Source: Iphione sp. A-MEVVRFRX5 (taxonomy: Eukaryota). Taken from it: 64,000 nt of DNA. The DNA lies in assembly GCA_976226885.1 (NCBI GenBank), contig OZ320319.1:7006001-7070000 (forward strand). Direction: 5' to 3'. How positions within the stretch are numbered: position 1 is the first letter of the stretch; every line of letters begins with the position of its first letter. This document shows, piece after piece, positions 8,189 through 25,919 of the stretch. The position numbers and the translations under genes are program-made. The notes below the pieces were generated by a model that saw only the letters and a program-made list of their open reading frames with translations, was not told the DNA's origin and ran no database searches.

Positions 8189-11100
8189 TTTGACTATCTA
8201 TTCTACCAAAGAAAAGAGAGCCTCATACAATAAATCTGTGGAGTAATCCCTTTGTAGATGTACCTTAAATGAAACAGTTATTTTAAATTGAAATTACTAT
8301 CCTTTCATGTAGACCATTTAATTATATCTAAAAAGAGAAATATGATACTGAGGCTAACCACTCTGTGACACTCACCTTGACCTCCATGGCACTAACAACC
8401 GTCTAGCTACTTCTTTTATATCAGTTATATGAGAAGGCACTCAATCCATGAATAGAAAGGTATGATTTGCAATATTCATTAGTTAGCAACTTTCAGGACA
8501 ATATACCATCTCCTAACACTATTGGTACATATGATCAATTTTAAATATAGCATCCATGGCCTAACAAACAAGGCAGTGACCATTATGGCATGACGAATTC
8601 TATTGCTAATAACATCACAGGTTAACAGATAAAAGGTCTTTTATCAGATGAATGCACATGTACTTGAAAGCTATCAATCTATAAATATTCCCATGAAATA
8701 TTCACTTCCCAACTTACAGCATAAGTAATACTGCATAACTCACTCGAAGTGTATTGGTAATAATGTGCTCATTGTGATAAAAGGTTTAAAATGATTGTCA
8801 ATGTCATTTATCATACACACATTTTAGACAAACTAGAAAATAGATGAATTAAAAACATATACTTGTCAACATGACACAAATTACTCCAATATATATACAG
8901 ATAATTAAATTCTATTCAAAGCTCAACATATTGATACAAATTATACATGAATTTGAGGATATGAAGCTTTGAATTTTACTAAAATGTGTAATAATGAATC
9001 TAGAGGCAGGAATATGGTTACCTATTATCTGGAACATGTATTTCAAGACCAGAAATTTAGTCCTCGAATTAATTCATTCAAAGGTGGAACTGACATGATA
9101 CATAGTATCATGGGTTTCCCTAATGTATTCTGGAAAGAGGTTGAAGAATGTCTTCATTGTTTTGAGGGGATGTGGCTTCAACCAATATAGTCTTATGAGG
9201 TCTGGTAAGGGAAATGTTTCACTGCAGTTACTTCTGCAGCAGTAATAAAGTGACAGGGCAGAGGAATATGCTTCAAGGATGATGGTTTTTTGGCAGTAAG
9301 AATTATCAGATCATTCATATCTTTGAGGCCATTGGAGAAGTGGCTAGCTATAGTGTAACTTTTCCTATGATACTGAATACAACAGGCAAAGATAAACAGT
9401 AAAGATGTGTTGTGGCTAGCCATGTGTAATTTTGTCTCCTAGATATGTATGATGGGCCCATGCAGGTGTCATATTCCAGATGAAGTATATTTTTATCCTG
9501 ATTTTCCTCCTCTTTTAAGAATAGTGCCCTAAGTACATGTGACAAAATTAACAAAACGGGTCATAACATAAGATTACAATAGCATACAAAACACATTTCA
9601 CAACATTTCAAATGTATTATACAATGAATTAAAATCTGTCACACTGAACCTTCATCTATATCTACTAAGACAGAAGCCAGAATATCACAAGGATCATGGC
9701 ATACTCTTATTGAATTTAGTGAGTGAAGGAAGTTAGTATATCTGAGCATGTCTTAAAAGAAAAATGACATTGTGATGTTTTCATGGATAAAGGCCTCTTT
9801 TAAGGTCAATGCGTGATTTAGAAAATGTGGTCAATCACCTTAGTGAACAAAGTAGAAGAAAGTATTAGGCAGTACCACAACCAGGTATTCTAGTGAGCTG
9901 TACTCTGTGAACTTTATGGCTAATAAGTGGTTGTGGCAGTCTACAATATAAGCAGTAAAATATAGAATAGCAATATGCATAGACCTTATAAATTTACTTT
10001 TTCAAGGAGTATATGATAAGATAGTATGGACGTTTATCACAATATTGTACTTTAAAGTCGAAAATCCAATCAATCAAATCCACCTACTTCAAGATTGTCT
10101 ATGCCTGACTTAATGTCTTGACATAAAATGTCAAGACATAAAATGTCAAGACATAAAAAATGTGGCATTCCAATTTGGCTACTTGATGAAAAAGACCTCA
10201 TGACAATAGAATTTTCCTAATTACTTTTTATTAGTTATTACTTTTACAAGTGCTTTTTACTTGCTATGATCATTTACAATGTGGCTGTTATCATTGCTCT
10301 CTGAGACGTGAAGCAAGAAATTTGACCAAAATTCTTTCAGATATTTCCTCCCTGTGTATGTACCATGTGTCATTACAACCTGTCATTGCAATAGATTAAC
10401 ATGCTTTGCCACACTTGATTTTGATTATAATTATTGGGTTGATCCTTTCTCCAAAGAGTAGGAGATATTAGGTTTGTTCTATCATTCCACTTGAAGACCA
10501 AATAGTAATTGATTTCACATGAGTATGGTTTTAAGTGAAAACCAGAAAAATTTCCTTCATGTGGTTTGTGGCATTTTGTATCATGGATCAATTCAGTTTA
10601 TTACAATGGTTCCAGATTTAATGATAACATATTAATGTGTTGCAATGACCATAGGAATTCATACTCTACATCTTTGATATGTCCACACATTGTATTCAAT
10701 TTTTGTGTGTAAGAAGAACTTGGAAACTACTACTTCAGAGGAATTTGCATTTATGTTTATTTGTGTAACTTTTCTTTTGAGTATAGCACAATGCATCATA
10801 TTCCTTTATCTGATAAGTAAGATGCAAAAGATACATACCAGCATGTCTAGTCAGAAACAGTACTAAATTTGAAAATGTACTAATGCATTGATATTAACAG
10901 TAAATATGTTAAGCAATGGAAGTTAAAACATGTATATATAAAAAAATGTGTGTTTTTTCATCAGACACCATACTCAAAGTTTTTTGAAAAATTGTTATAT
11001 GTCATTTCATATGTCTATTTTATATAAAACAGACCTGGCCAAAGAAGGAGAAATGTATGTCTGGCCGTTTGGTATGGTCGGTATGAGGTAGACAGGTAGG

Positions 11101-11501
11101 GTCGCACCGCTCTGTAATGTTAGCAATGGTACTTTTAAAGAAATACAATGGTTATACTAAATTGTGAAATAATGTTGTCTTATGTGATCGTGCTCACTGC
11201 GGTATGTTAAATTTTGAGGAAAATACATTTTTAAGGTGGTATAAAAGGATTTTATTTGCCGTGCACAGTGGTGAGTGATATTGGGTGTATATTTACAGTT
11301 GGCATCTCCTCAGTGCTGAACATCCACCGTTCGGTTGTATGAACAGTATTTATTCCATGTTACTCTGCAAGTATTTGGTGATATTGTGAGGTATTGTCTA
11401 CAAGCGCCTGGTGGTATACGTTAGAAGATTTAAATTGGTCCTACTGCATAAAAAAGATTGTTATTTTTCGAATCAGGGTTGGTTACAATTCTATATTTAG
11501 A

Positions 11502-13049
11502 ATGGCAGACCATAATATGACCTGTGTGCGTTCTACCATAGTGGCTGAGGGAGGGGGTGGCCAGCCGAACATAGCTGAAATTGAACCAACAGATTCGAGT
11601 ACCGGTGGTCAAACCGTATCGGTCGGAGGTTCAGATCAGACGGTACCAGGGAAGACTACGGATGGTAATACCTGTAACCTAATTGGAACTGATCAGACAG
11701 ATTCCACCAGCAAAGGTAAACAAATTTCTATTAAATCATTTTTTATAAGCCCTGCTATAAGTGGCGATGCTCAGAGGAGTAGTTCAAAAAGGAAGAAGGA
11801 AAACAGCCCTAATACAGAGGGGGTGGTAGATGCCAAAAAAGGTACATTGCAACGTCAAATGAATGCACTAATGGCTGAAATAATTAAAAATAGAGAACTA
11901 TTCTCGAGTGAGGCCAAGAAAATAAATGAAAATGTTTCATCCCTGAGTAGTAAAGTTGAAAGCTGTACCACCGGTCTCACTGAACAAAAAGAGCGTATAG
12001 TTCTATTAGAGTCATCTGTAGCAGAATTACAAAAAGAGAATGCCGCTCTACGAAATGAATTGAATGGTTACGTAACACACAAATCAGACACTGTTGAAAT
12101 ACTAGATCGCAAGAGTAGAAAAAATAACATGTTTATTGACGGTTTGAACCTAAATGAAGGGGATGATGTATTGCAAACTGTTTTGTTATTATTTGATTCA
12201 TTAGGTGTGGATGTTGTTGAGGACGACATTGATGAGATTTATCAAACTCGTCGCAAAAATAAGAAAGGCGTCCCACTGATTTTTGTAAAATTCCTACGAA
12301 GCACTACTAAGGACAAAGTTCTAAAAGAGAAAAGGAAGCTGAAAGGTAAACATATTTGGTTAAATGCAGACTTGACACAGCTACAACGTGAGACACAAGT
12401 CAAATTTAAAAAGATAATGTTACATGTACAGTCAGCATATCCAGATTTGAATGTAGCTGTCAGTGGTGATCGACTACTTTTGGGTGAGACCTGGTATGAC
12501 TCAAACACTCAAGGCAAAATACCTGAACAGTACTTGTCGTGTCTAAATACAGAACAACATCAGAAAGATGAGGTACTCGTACTTGCAGGCAAGGGTTCGG
12601 TAATGTCAAACCTTTACCCGTGCACAGTGTCTTGGGATAAATTAGAGTTTGCGAGTGTTGAGCAGGCTTACACTTACAGTAAAGCTAAAGCAGCTGGTAT
12701 TCAGTCCAAAGTAGCTCTATCAACCCACACGACAGACTATCAGTCGTTAAAAACAATCAGGAAAGATCTTCCTAACATAACTGGCTGGGAAGAGTTGAAG
12801 GTAGAGATCATGGATGAACTTGTGTACTCAAAATTTTCTGTCAATGCAGAGTTCAAGGAGTTATTACTGAGTACTGGTGAGAAACTTCTATTAGAAGCTA
12901 CAAAAAACTCGTTCTGGGGGGCCAATGCAACAAGAAGGTCCAAAGAAACTAAGCTGGGTACCTACACTGGAAAGAATGAAATGGGCAAATCTTTAATGCG
13001 GGTGCGGTCTAGACTCCGTGGGGATATGGAGTTTGATACCCAGGAGTAG
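11502..13049 (+). CDS. LINE-1-type ORF1 protein (515 aa): PIP box, NLS, coiled coil, RRM/CTD, C-terminal NADAR/YbiA-like domain (~12573-13020)
   Basis: Intact ORF; ATG 11502 chosen because its context CTATATTTAGnATGGCAG is shared with element 2; RKNNMFIDGL...IFVKF...IWLNADLT is the L1-type RRM/CTD signature; SNLYP, VEQAY, W..LKVEIM, KF, LLLSTG..LLEAT..SFWG, GKNEMGKSLMRVR match the NADAR pattern. Confidence 0.85.
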   Translation: MADHNMTCVRSTIVAEGGGGQPNIAEIEPTDSSTGGQTVSVGGSDQTVPGKTTDGNTCNLIGTDQTDSTSKGKQISIKSFFISPAISGDAQRSSSKRKKENSPNTEGVVDAKKGTLQRQMNALMAEIIKNRELFSSEAKKINENVSSLSSKVESCTTGLTEQKERIVLLESSVAELQKENAALRNELNGYVTHKSDTVEILDRKSRKNNMFIDGLNLNEGDDVLQTVLLLFDSLGVDVVEDDIDEIYQTRRKNKKGVPLIFVKFLRSTTKDKVLKEKRKLKGKHIWLNADLTQLQRETQVKFKKIMLHVQSAYPDLNVAVSGDRLLLGETWYDSNTQGKIPEQYLSCLNTEQHQKDEVLVLAGKGSVMSNLYPCTVSWDKLEFASVEQAYTYSKAKAAGIQSKVALSTHTTDYQSLKTIRKDLPNITGWEELKVEIMDELVYSKFSVNAEFKELLLSTGEKLLLEATKNSFWGANATRRSKETKLGTYTGKNEMGKSLMRVRSRLRGDMEFDTQE

Positions 13050-13143
13050 ATTGTGACTTACCATTTGTTGAATCACTAAATACTATTGAATTACCTACTT
13101 GTGATATTTTACAGATTAAACTGCTAACAACCACAAAGGAAGA

Positions 13144-21423: not shown

Positions 21424-24111
21424 ATGGACCATAAATTGGTAGGCCTGGCCATATATCATATCAACGTAAGGAGTCTTAATGGTAAGTTAAATGAATTACG
21501 TTTATTAGTTGGTAAGATTGTACCGGACATATTGATAATTACGGAATCGTGGCTATCCAAGGATATACCGGATGTTATGGTGAATATATATGGTTATACA
21601 TGCGTGCGTAATGACAGGGATGGGAGAGGAGGGGGGGTTATGATGTACCTAAAAACAAATATAAATGAATTTTGCCAGAGTATAAATGAATACGTCATAT
21701 CAAATGCTAATATTGAAACTGTAGGTATCGACCTAAATTTGCCAGGAAATAGTAGGTTGTCTTTATTAGGGACCTATAGGCCGCCTAAAGGGGATATGAG
21801 TCAATGTTTGGAAAATCTGGAGAATCTATTTGATCAGATATTTAATGAAAACAAGCATATTATTATCACGGGGGATTTGAATGTAAATTGGTTAGGTCAT
21901 TCATTAAACAAACGGAAATTTGAAGAATTTCTTTATAGAACCGGTATGAAGCAATTAATTTCGACTATTACGAGACGTTCGGTAATGGGAGGGACGTGTA
22001 TTGACCTCTGTATTACAAATATTAAAGATACTATATCGGCTAAAGTAATAGAGGCGACTATTAGTGATCATGATATGATAGAAATAATACTCATGACGCC
22101 TACAAAGAAGACATATCAAACCTCAACAGTTACGTATCGGGATTTTTCAGGCATAGATACTGACGATCTGGTGAATAGAATGTTAGCTCTACAATGGTGT
22201 GATTTCTATCGATCAGAATGCATACAAGAAAAGTGGGATATAATGTTGAGGAGGATTAGTGCTATATTAAATGATCGTTGTAGGCTAAAGAAATCCAAAA
22301 CAAGAATTGGGTGCCCTAGATGGGTGAATGGCACATTCCTCGACTTGGTTAGAAAGAAACACGATGCTGTGAAACGATTTAGAATCTATGGTCGATTGGA
22401 AGATCGCCTATTAAGTAGAGTATTATATTATAGGGTAAGAAGAATGGCAAATGAGTTACGGCGAAAAGATATCGAGAACAAGTTATGGGAACTAAAAAAT
22501 GAGCCTAGTAAATTTTGGAGTACAGTAAAAAAGTCCTATGGATATAGTAAATCTAAAAGAGAGTTGAAATTGTTAAATAAAAATAACTATCCCCACTCTG
22601 ATAGTGAAATGGCACACATGATTAATGAACATTTTAGCAAGGTGGGGGCTAATGTTGCGGCCAAAGTTGGTAATGGTTTGTACATTCCCAGAGAAATTGT
22701 AGAATCGAGGTTTAATCTTAAAGAATTCAGTATTAGTGATCTATTAAAAACAATAAGGTCTATTTCTGATACTAAAGCAAGTATGGTAAAAGATTTTCCA
22801 TCAAAAATTTTGAAGGATATATTCGCCATTTTATGTTATGAGTTGTTGCATTTGTTAAATGAGATAATACGTCAATGTAAATTCCCAATAGAGTGGACTA
22901 CAGCAATAGTAACGCCATTGCATAAATCCGGAAGTGCATCAGATATGAATAATTTTCGCCCTATAAGTCAACTGCCATTACCTGTAAAAATTTTAGAGAA
23001 AATGATTTACAATGAACTAATGTCATATCTGGAAAAGAACAATCTATTAAGTTCGTGTCAATATGGTTTTCGTCCTAACAGAGGTACTGATCTAGCATTG
23101 TACTCGGTTTTAGAATGTATAACCTTGGCATTAAATAATAAGGAAAAGGTACTTAGTTGTTTCGTCGATTTTTCTAAGGCCTTTGATAGCGTAAATCATG
23201 AAGTGATTTTGTTAAAGTTAAAAGATATAGGGGCTAGCACAATTGTACCATTAATGAAATCCTACCTAAATAATAGATGGCAAATAACCAATGTTCGAGG
23301 TCAAATGAGCACGAGGGTGCATCTAACATGTGGGGTTCCACAGGGCTCAATATTGGGCCCCCTGTTATTTTTAATTTTTATAAATGACTTACCGCAGTAT
23401 ATAAAGTATTCCCGTTGTTACATGTATGCTGATGATGTGGTTTTCATTCTAGCCTCTAAGAGTAAAGAGGATGCGTGCTACTTTTTACAAAAGGACTTGG
23501 ATAGTCTCCAGCATTGGAGTAACTGTAATAAAATCTTAGTAAATGTGTCAAAAACTAAGTTAATGTCATTTGCATATAAGCGTACGGAGATGAACTATCC
23601 GATTAGGCTAGGCAATAATGTGTTAGAATGGGTGACAACATTCAAATATCTAGGAGTTAATTTACAGAATAATCTGAAATGGGAATGTTTTATTGACGAA
23701 ATGATTCGTAAAGGGTATGCAAGGCTAAATCAGTTCAAATTTATTAGGAAAGAGTTAACTATTTTTCGGTCGCTACAATTGGCAAAAACAATGATCCTGC
23801 CAGCTATTGATTATAACACTTTTGTATTGTGTAATGTTAAAGGAAATCGATATGAAAAATTAATAACGTTGAGAAGAGCAGTATATAGAACATGTATGAA
23901 GCCAATGATTCCTCCAAGTAGGGATGAAATACATGCAGAAATACAAGGTATTGTCGATGCGACCATTTTTAGGTTAGGGTACTATCACAATAGTTTGGAT
24001 AGAGCTGATATTGGTATAGAAAGAATGGTTAGAACGCGTAATCAACGGCGCAGAGTAATAAAGCATATCAGGCCAAAGAAAGAGGCTACACGACGATCAG
24101 TTCCGTATTGA
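21424..24111 (+). CDS. ORF3/pol of element 2: APE endonuclease + reverse transcriptase (895 aa; TGA at 24109 probably premature, homologous end at 24234)
   Basis: HINVRS, ITESWL, YRPP, GDLN, IDLCI, SDHD; NFRPIS, QYGF, DFSKAFD, GVPQGSILGPLLF, YADD, KYLGV; after the TGA the frame continues FQQ...WKR...NYFVP*, matching element 1 HFQQ...WKR...NYYVP*. Confidence 0.93.
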   Translation: MDHKLVGLAIYHINVRSLNGKLNELRLLVGKIVPDILIITESWLSKDIPDVMVNIYGYTCVRNDRDGRGGGVMMYLKTNINEFCQSINEYVISNANIETVGIDLNLPGNSRLSLLGTYRPPKGDMSQCLENLENLFDQIFNENKHIIITGDLNVNWLGHSLNKRKFEEFLYRTGMKQLISTITRRSVMGGTCIDLCITNIKDTISAKVIEATISDHDMIEIILMTPTKKTYQTSTVTYRDFSGIDTDDLVNRMLALQWCDFYRSECIQEKWDIMLRRISAILNDRCRLKKSKTRIGCPRWVNGTFLDLVRKKHDAVKRFRIYGRLEDRLLSRVLYYRVRRMANELRRKDIENKLWELKNEPSKFWSTVKKSYGYSKSKRELKLLNKNNYPHSDSEMAHMINEHFSKVGANVAAKVGNGLYIPREIVESRFNLKEFSISDLLKTIRSISDTKASMVKDFPSKILKDIFAILCYELLHLLNEIIRQCKFPIEWTTAIVTPLHKSGSASDMNNFRPISQLPLPVKILEKMIYNELMSYLEKNNLLSSCQYGFRPNRGTDLALYSVLECITLALNNKEKVLSCFVDFSKAFDSVNHEVILLKLKDIGASTIVPLMKSYLNNRWQITNVRGQMSTRVHLTCGVPQGSILGPLLFLIFINDLPQYIKYSRCYMYADDVVFILASKSKEDACYFLQKDLDSLQHWSNCNKILVNVSKTKLMSFAYKRTEMNYPIRLGNNVLEWVTTFKYLGVNLQNNLKWECFIDEMIRKGYARLNQFKFIRKELTIFRSLQLAKTMILPAIDYNTFVLCNVKGNRYEKLITLRRAVYRTCMKPMIPPSRDEIHAEIQGIVDATIFRLGYYHNSLDRADIGIERMVRTRNQRRRVIKHIRPKKEATRRSVPY

Positions 24112-24259
24112 TTTCAGCAGTTATGGGACAGTTTGTCTGTTGATGAATCACATTATGATGTGAATCACATGAAAGCATTATGGAAAAGAATCCGTGTAAG
24201 CAAAAGGGCAAGTATGAATTATTTTGTACCATAGTTTGTTCTACTGCTGTAAGGTGGGA

Positions 24260-24569
24260 GGATGTAATCCTAAAAACTAGCACCGTGGATTCTAGAACGA
24301 CCAAATTAATTACAATGTTATTAATCTACTGCTTGGTAATGCCATAGGAAGGATGTAATCCTGACACTGGAGCTGTTTTGGAGAATAATCAGAAGATCTC
24401 GTTTAGGAGGGATGTAATCCTGTATAAATGAGTATATACTTTAAATAAATTGAAAGCAGTTAAATTAAAGACAGCTAGTCTAATAACAAAAGGTAGTGTG
24501 GTGGGATGTAATCCTATTAATACAGTAATAAGAACTCCAATATGATGATACTATGGTAGGATGTGATCC
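24260..24569 (+). other. 3' UTR array of five GGAT-GTR-ATCC mini-hairpins (element 2)
   Basis: GGATGTAATCC at 24260, 24351, 24410, 24504; GGATGTGATCC at 24559. Confidence 0.75.
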
Positions 24570-25919
24570 TGGATATAAAACTTCTATAAAACTTCTATAA
24601 ATATTATTTCATTAAGGTAGACTTATCTGTAGTCGCGAGTATAGATAGATATATTGTATCAGGCTGATAGCAAAATTAAGTAAGTAAGATGTATTATGAC
24701 ATAGTGAGACTAGAGCCACTCCATAGAAAAGGAAAAAATTAACACAATAGAAATTAAATAGAAAGCTATATAGGAAAGAAAGACAGCTTGTTAATGTACC
24801 AACCACTTTCATTATTCTCATTTTATTCTTTTATTATCTCAATGATGTATTATTGATTCATGTTAAAGTGGTCTGTATCAAACTGCACACCTGGCTGCAA
24901 ATACTTCAATGTATCATATATAGCCAGTATAAATAAAGAATATAATAATAATATAATATGTAAATTAACTGAAGCTCATTACTAACACTATTACTACTTA
25001 CTTATTATAAATGAAATCGATGTAAATGCGGCTGGCAGCAAATACGACTATGTATGAACATTGCCAGGATAAATAAAGAATTAATAATAATAATGTCCAC
25101 TACCAGCTACTGTGCTTTGAACTTATGGTAAAAATTACCTCCAAATAGAATGTTACTATTAAGTACGGAGTTTAAGCTTATCTCCATAAGAGAAAGGTAG
25201 AAAAGACAATAAGGAGGGTGAAACATAATAATTTAGGGTATACAATTGTATGATTAGCTGGGAGCAGAAATATATGGCCCAGAAGTATAAGACTAGATGA
25301 TACAACCATATTAACTATATTACTCCTGGGACCATTGCTAACAGTCAAAATTATAATAAGAATCAGAAGAAGGACAGATTGTCAACCTGGACCTACTATG
25401 CTATGATATGAATAAATCTTTGGTCATATGGTATTGCATAGTATTGATATTAAACAAATTTTTCAGAGTGGCTTTATTTTTCAGAGTGGTTTTATTAATA
25501 AATGATTGACAACTCCTTTGTTGATGGACCTGTGGGCAGGGGACACGATGTCAACCTGCATCCCTGACTTATTACAGCATAGCATATAATGTAAAATTCT
25601 ACAGTAGTGCAATGATACTAGTTTGTACAAATATGTAGATACAATCAATTCATTTCAAGTGGTCCACATGATGTGTTTTCATCATCATTCACTCTGGACA
25701 CAATATACTAAATGTATGTGTTTGTTAGAGATTGGAATCTCCCTCGGGATCTTCTTGGGCTGGTTGGGTTATACACACTTCTGATGCACTCTCTTTGGGC
25801 CCAGCCTTTCATTCTTCTTCTTCTTCTTTTTGATCCAGTGCAGCCTGTTGCTCCGGGTCTAATGTGATGTCTCTTTTACCGAGTAAGGCTTAATAAAGTC
25901 TATTGCTGCTGCCTTATTA

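Follow-up and report, generated by a model that had tools for sequence, protein, structure and literature searches.

Long interspersed nuclear elements (LINEs) copy themselves via RNA, so an intron should vanish at the first jump. On the usual view, a LINE translates its reverse transcriptase (RT) from the same full-length RNA that the enzyme goes on to copy. We analyzed two LINEs, here called W1 and W2, in a 64,000-nucleotide (nt) stretch of the Iphione sp. A-MEVVRFRX5 genome (contig OZ320319.1, positions 7,006,001 to 7,070,000 of the forward strand), which we refer to as the window. In both elements an open reading frame (ORF) for an endonuclease-RT, pol, follows two other ORFs. Positions are those of the window, and the features lie on its forward strand unless they are palindromic.

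The closest described systems are the following. Foamy viruses produce Pol from a spliced mRNA (PMC3705302). The main route to the human L1 RT is unconventional initiation of ORF2 on a bicistronic RNA (PMC2881922). Human L1 also makes a translatable spliced ORF2 RNA, SpORF2 (PMC2896524), and spliced L1 RNAs known as SpIREs have been called dead ends, yet retrotranspose (PMC5860796). CR1/L2-group LINEs carry an L1-like (type II) or an esterase (type IV) ORF1 (PMC4120745, PMC13343379); the letters ‘splic’ occur nowhere in the main text of these two papers. A NADAR domain is present on ORF1 of Crassostrea gigas Tx1 LINEs (PMC12477816). Full-text literature searches, some of them aimed at spliced or tricistronic LINEs and at long-range pairing, turned up neither a spliced three-ORF LINE nor a donor-docking duplex; Repbase reports, subscription papers and supplements, which may describe the family, lay outside this scope.

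A preliminary description of the window proposed that one leader donor is spliced to an acceptor ahead of each ORF in both elements. Our analysis points to a narrower arrangement. With a probability of roughly 0.72, the family to which W1 and W2 belong makes its endonuclease-RT from a spliced mRNA, and a predicted duplex at the 5′ end of the RNA would hold the donor by the pol acceptor.

Results

A donor-like site near the 5′ end and a candidate 3′ splice site before pol

The window is part of a genome of 1.18 Gb. W1 extends from its 5′ end at 11074 to its pol stop at 17352, and W2 occupies 17753–24955. A genome search with ORF2 gave 2376 candidates, the best 150 of which were scored, as were the best 150 of 6063 on a second candidate list. 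The family sample consists of 140 other copies, taken as 9-kb stretches; 8 of 148 ORF2 matches and 14 of 74 further pol matches were left out. Mis-called leaders (L135, L043, L106 and L141) were dropped, as was L052 before the ORF1-ORF2 gap count, and near-identical copies were removed before the duplex, acceptor, donor and ORF1-box counts. The ORF1-ORF2-pol order recurs throughout the 140 copies, some of which are 5′-truncated or broken. ORF2 identity to W2 ranges from 79% down to 47%, and shared non-coding motifs therefore reflect constraint rather than recent copying. Splice-like signals are kept over an RT divergence of about 0.3–1 changes per site.

The leader donors of the preliminary description (GT at 11096 in W1 and 17767 in W2) hold up, as donor-like 5′ sites exceed chance across the family. 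The element terminus is conserved, with AT at −2/−1 in 46 leaders. Scanning the first 45 nt of 71 leaders with a home-made score against the U1 consensus gave a score of at least 5 in 55 leaders. Dinucleotide shuffles reach this score in 7.6, three windows further downstream in 4, 8 and 1, and the antisense strand in 0. The donors are located at +12 to +27, and their letters at +3 to +6 alternate among U1-compatible forms (GTAGGG in 17, GTAGGT in 15, GTGAGT in 15, and rarer others). These sites thus have the GT and U1 complementarity of a U2-type donor. Folded by itself, the leader is no more stable than its shuffles (z −0.85).

The region before pol was compared in 96 non-redundant copies, within a window 100–20 nt before the pol ATG. 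A branch point-like ACTAAY is present in 77 copies (TACTAAC in 51). Four windows further upstream contain it in 0, 10, 7 and 4 copies, the antisense strand in 3 and shuffles in 3.6, so the motif is strand-specific. It is followed by a T-rich tract (pyrimidine share 0.59) and then by a first AG. In 52 of 77 copies this AG lies at +15/+16, and it is GAG in 46 and AAG in 18 copies (64 of 77). A YAG comes after this first AG in 71 of 77 copies (CAG 49, TAG 22), at a median of +27 from the branch A and 40 nt before the ATG, with all three frames represented. Judged by its letters, this combination of branch point, pyrimidine tract and YAG is what a U2-type 3′ splice site consists of.

In W2, the region spans 21348–21378 and includes the predicted branch point ACTAAT (A at 21352), an upstream GAG (21363–65) and an acceptor CAG ending at 21378. 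In W1 (14457–14496), ACTAAC (A at 14461) precedes a T-tract, an AG at 14476–77 and a further TAG at 14495–96. The AGs named in the preliminary description (14476–77 and 21377–78) do lie 43 and 45 nt from the ATGs, with in-frame stops between, and its ORF2-pol spacer lengths of 693 and 1102 nt are also correct. Its choice of acceptor fares less well in W1: the region is conserved beyond chance, but the T9-AG sits 16 nt past the branch A, at the family’s GAG/AAG position rather than that of its YAG, and L079, a close relative of W1, carries GAG there. Given this, the acceptor used in W1 may be either 14476–77 or the next TAG. Across the family the spacer before pol is 0.5–1.4 kb long, which argues against stop-restart translation of pol.

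The 5′ end is complementary to a docking site near the pol acceptor

The strongest and newest feature of our analysis is a co-varying long-range duplex, unseen in the preliminary description, whose predicted pairing supports a leader-to-pol splice. The 5′-terminal 45 nt are complementary to a site of about 30 nt, located 3.1–3.9 kb downstream and about 130 nt (80–236) upstream of the pol branch point. This docking site is one continuous strand that pairs with two leader arms, looping out 12–17 nt. In 57 of 64 copies, this loop, which separates the two helices, contains a donor. In W1, the 5′ arms (11076–11121; helix 1 at ~11076–11084, helix 2 at ~11101–11121) enclose the donor CAG-GTAGGG (GT 11096–97) and pair with 14290–14320. 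In W2, 29 contiguous nt (21198–21226) are complementary to arms at 17754–17765 and 17779–17795, with the donor TG-GTAGGT (GT 17767–68) in the unpaired loop 17766–17778.

Predicted pairing is stronger between leader and spacer of the same copy than between those of different copies. Own pairs have a mean energy of −46.6 kcal/mol (n = 63), compared to −35.5 kcal/mol for swapped pairs and −28 to −32 kcal/mol for other regions or shuffled leaders. The own spacer is the best partner of the leader in 27 of 63 copies and among the top three in 40. With helix columns anchored on conserved motifs, 95.2% of core cells are paired (n = 64), versus 85.0% (at most 87.0%) when partners were permuted 1000 times. 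On the ORF2 tree, parsimony counts 114 changes between Watson-Crick pair types in 27 columns, edge columns included. G-U outnumbers A-C in duplex cells by 166 to 41 (n = 64), which indicates a sense-strand RNA rather than a DNA repeat.

A global fold of 3.75 kb of W2 pairs 17754–17765 with 21215–21226 and 17779–17795 with 21198–21214 and leaves the donor loop open; the fold of W1 recovers helix 2. We detected no second docking site before ORF2 (−31 to −32 kcal/mol, the control level), and an Rfam scan of 10900–25300 returned no match at E ≤ 1. Since the branch point and acceptor are 80–236 nt away from the paired site, their presence is not a by-product of the pairing.

The same acceptors, which lie 6–54 nt before ATGs in any frame, could be used by the host to resolve an operon-like RNA through spliced-leader trans-splicing. 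The element has its own donor, however, predicted to be docked beside the acceptor, and trans-splicing of this kind is reported absent in annelids (PMC7854359), which is relevant if the host is an annelid. We consider this explanation highly improbable.

Genomic copies and evidence against splicing

We searched the genome for spliced copies, a check suggested in the preliminary description. None was found among 187 pol-start entries (17 of them duplicates) or 20 more, and three pattern searches returned only chance or unspliced matches (sensitivity of the pol pattern ~44%). A loose genome-wide branch-point pattern was uninformative. One copy, L214 (G000:C4:21601129-21605928), joins leader position +159 to a site 17 nt before the pol ATG; the letters at this junction are not those of a splice, which identifies it by sequence as an internal deletion of ORF1 and ORF2. 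At the 5′ truncation points of other copies, 3 of 10 resolved cases (L189, L203 and L206; a small sample, examined post hoc) fall inside the ~30-nt docking site. This hints, weakly, at a duplex on the RNA that serves as template, and these truncations possibly record RT stalling at the duplex.

The absence of spliced copies is one of several observations that weigh against a leader-to-pol splice, all the more as spliced human L1 RNAs do retrotranspose (PMC5860796). Because the copies are related to one another, the family counts lack independence; the donor sites were scored with a home-made scheme, and conserved motifs served to anchor the helix columns. Donors in the loop are weak in the sub-lineages of L045, L047 and L051, and 19 of 96 copies lack ACTAAY. 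In the W1 global fold, an alternative pairing replaces helix 1 and covers the donor GT. The predicted spliced leader would retain one or two cap-proximal ATGs (at +7 in 45 of 53). Finally, the conserved GAG/AAG 15–16 nt past the branch A (W1 14476–14477, W2 21364–21365) has no explanation, though it may tune or dampen use of the acceptor.

Some of these data would also fit a duplex that marks full-length RNA for packaging, hides the cap to stop ORF1 translation or, for a ribosome shunt, places the cap close to the start of pol, with a donor that only binds U1 against early polyadenylation. Such a duplex would form only on unspliced RNA, in keeping with the missing spliced copies and with the truncations inside the docking site, and AATAAA occurs inside 70 of 113 spacers. 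This explanation gives no reason for a perfect branch point, followed by a U-rich tract and a YAG, to keep a fixed spacing directly ahead of pol, and we regard it as unlikely on its own. The two readings are not exclusive, as the duplex may do both jobs. We thus retain leader-to-pol splicing, which is well supported by family-wide conservation of its predicted signals together with the co-varying long-range duplex.

Routes to ORF2 and ORF1

The gap between ORF1 and ORF2 is of two types. In 42 of 103 non-redundant copies, including W1, it is AT-rich (GC content 0.33) and contains a TTNCAG acceptor. In the remaining 61, including W2, it is GC-rich (0.45) and without an acceptor. The W1 acceptor-like site TTTTACAG (13095–13114) ends 29 nt before the ORF2 ATG, at the AG (13113–14) that the preliminary description had named. 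The weaker W2 counterpart that it proposed does not stand, as the W2 gap (19535–19637) is of the GC-rich type, with TTACGAAC at 19537. Of the 61 copies without an acceptor, 48 have a short motif of the CGAA or TTAYGT type close to the end of ORF1, versus 6 of the 42 copies with an acceptor. Lineages without the ORF2 acceptor carry TT(A/C)CGAA(C/T) about 10 nt past the ORF1 stop (19537–19544 in the window).

A quick RT tree of 76 copies has five changes of gap state, two of which are scoring misses (L127 and L137, in which acceptors are present by eye). A leader-to-ORF2 splice is plausible only in lineages with the TTNCAG acceptor, W1 but not W2 among them. In W1 lineages, ORF2 would probably be spliced from the same donor to this acceptor, while in W2 lineages it would be reached otherwise, by reinitiation or an internal start.

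Ahead of ORF1, the preliminary description read an AG at 11499–500 and 17993–94 as an acceptor. The coordinates and conservation of this motif are borne out. It is, however, the end of a palindrome, CTA(A/T)4TAG (11491–11500 in W1, 17985–17994 in W2), that does not resemble an acceptor. The exact box is present in 55 of 71 leaders versus 0.97 when shuffled; a CAG form occurs in 1, and the commonest core is AAAA (19 of 68). Upstream of the box, ACTAAY is found in 0 of 68 copies and TTNCAG in 8 of 55 (7.3 in shuffles), and the pyrimidine share is 0.46 versus 0.59 at pol. We therefore rejected the box as a U2-type acceptor, for want of a branch point, a pyrimidine tract and CAG/TAG interchange. 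Two further candidate roles were rejected: a stop-restart signal (the TAG of the box closes an upstream ORF in 1 of 55) and a hairpin (the flanks do not co-vary). The box fits the MEF2 site consensus, CTA(A/T)4TAG with K/M flanks, and is likely a DNA-binding site of the internal promoter.

The full plan, in which a single donor serves three acceptors so that W1 and W2 each yield three monocistronic mRNAs, would account for the conserved pol acceptor and for the ORF2 acceptor where it occurs. In 31 of 68 copies the AG of the ORF1 box also ends 1 nt before the ATG, and a ribosome scanning to ORF1 would have to pass a median of 8 upstream ATGs in the leader. The palindromic, acceptor-unlike character of the ORF1 box and the lack of an ORF2 acceptor in W2 and 60 other copies count against this plan, which we find quite improbable as a whole. 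Its pol part stands, its ORF2 part is limited to some lineages, and ORF1 is probably not reached by splicing.

Separate internal promoters for the downstream mRNAs, with the inverted repeat as a DNA-level promoter motif, would suit the motifs resembling DNA sites that the leader and the GC-rich ORF1-ORF2 gap contain, and are a fair reading for ORF2 in W2 lineages. For the system as a whole we give this explanation very little credence: the G-U excess is unexpected for a DNA inverted repeat, arm spacing differs between the two sites, and the branch point is strand-specific.

A second conserved leader motif, TGRGYGATAAYAGG, is found upstream of the MEF2-like box in 46 of 71 leaders (11270–11285 in the window) and is probably another promoter site. 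One copy, L265 (G000:C10:35864187-35867224), has a different leader layout: the family 5′ end is followed about 200 nt in by an acceptor-like TTTTCGCCAG, and ORF1 homology begins only ~1.1 kb downstream.

Nested elements and encoded proteins

The two elements are nested rather than tandem, with W2 inside the 3′ untranslated region (UTR) of W1. W2 ends in its own AATAAA + (TAA)n tail (24923–24955), and the W1 tail of the same type, pushed downstream by W2, follows at 25063–25095; the whole nest spans 11074–25095. Family tails are AATAAA + (TAA)n without target-site duplication (8–10 nt matches in 9 of 65 tails checked, none at the tail end). A tandem-repeat tail without target-site duplication is a feature of the CR1/L2 group, and it is present here. 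Among the best matches in an RT comparison (35–45% identity), there were no clade-named CR1, L2, Crack or Daphne references. The copies are dispersed, with a 3′ tail, 5′ truncation and no long terminal repeats (LTRs), as in non-LTR retrotransposons, and APE endonuclease and RT share one ORF, as in APE-type LINEs.

W1 and W2 are members of a large three-ORF LINE family that encodes an ORF1 with NADAR, an SGNH esterase and an APE-RT. W1 ORF1 (11502–13049, 515 amino acids) includes a coiled coil, an L1-like RNA recognition motif region (by eye) and a C-terminal NADAR domain (PF08719, E 5.6e-24). W2 ORF1, also with NADAR (17996–19534), has a premature stop at 18536–38. W1 pol (14521–17352) is interrupted by two stops, at 15061 and 15700, and shifts frame near 16357, so W1 pol and W2 ORF1 are both broken. 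W2 pol (21424–24111) is open over 895 amino acids and contains RT (PF00078, E 6.5e-36) and APE (PF14529, E 4.7e-9) domains. Near the ORF1 N-terminus, 48 of 97 copies have QxxhxxFF, which resembles the PIP-box consensus, followed by a KRKKE basic stretch (11718–11745 and 18120–18141 in the window).

ORF2 (227 amino acids, 13144–13827 in W1; 19638–20321 in W2) has no Pfam match, no homologues by homology search or in metagenome contigs, and no match of note among PDB sequences. Its structure model (pLDDT 84) matches GDSL/SGNH structures (E 1.5e-5 to 2.4e-5, TM 0.53–0.59), ranked under four designed scaffolds. Residues S13, G36, N65, D198 and H201 are conserved in at least 90% of 29 sequences. 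ORF2 is thus an SGNH/GDSL-type hydrolase by its predicted fold and its Ser, Gly, Asn and Asp-x-x-His catalytic blocks.

Short palindromes with 3-nt loops are repeated in the pol spacer and in 3′ UTRs (window 24260–24515, 20381–20930 and 17373–17605): GGATGTAATCC and GGTATGTAATAC occur four times each and GGAC(A/G)TTGTC three times.

Discussion

The data consist of donor-like sites, a branch point, an acceptor and co-varying complementarity, from which we infer splicing itself. The duplex would hold the cap-proximal donor about 130 nt from the branch point and the YAG near the pol start. The spliceosome would then join a first exon of 12–27 nt to a site about 40 nt before the pol ATG. Splicing would be partial and leave unspliced RNA as the transposition template. 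If pol mRNA is spliced, it would have to be copied poorly, and pol would therefore work in trans on the unspliced RNA.

A bolder reading, which we hold tentatively and at somewhat less than even odds, is that this LINE has given up cis-preference. Its RT would be made only from spliced mRNA, through removal of a 3.3-kb intron closed by an RNA zipper that joins the capped 5′ end to the region of the branch point; this zipper, which only unspliced RNA can have, would mark the template for copying; and the route to ORF2 would have alternated repeatedly between splicing to an acceptor and a signal of another kind. If splicing occurs as proposed, the family makes it testable how the second and third ORFs of a LINE are expressed and how unspliced RNA is chosen as template.

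The system shares features with each of the described ones. As in Crassostrea gigas Tx1 elements, NADAR is present on a LINE ORF1; the available part of that report mentions no third ORF or splicing (PMC12477816). The family resembles the CR1/L2 group in its APE-RT pol, (TAA)n tail, lack of target-site duplication, 5′ truncation, and SGNH esterase and L1-like ORF1 modules. Here, however, each of the two modules has an ORF of its own ahead of pol, and NADAR forms the end of ORF1. Like human L1 SpORF2 and SpIREs, the proposed splice would join a 5′ UTR donor to an acceptor before the RT ORF and give an RT-only mRNA. The family differs from L1 in the conservation of its signals over the RT divergence given above, in its docking duplex, and in the lack of any spliced copy among those searched.

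The likeness to foamy viruses is a 5′ donor shared with another gene and an acceptor upstream of the Pol start, with unspliced RNA as the genome (PMC3705302). Foamy viruses are LTR retroviruses with an acceptor inside gag, whereas this family is non-LTR and combines a dedicated intron-like spacer with a duplex predicted to co-vary. Foamy virus splicing has been shown experimentally, whereas splicing here is what we infer. If this is correct, a consensus intron kept over deep divergence with a co-evolving duplex would represent a foamy virus-like solution in a non-LTR element.

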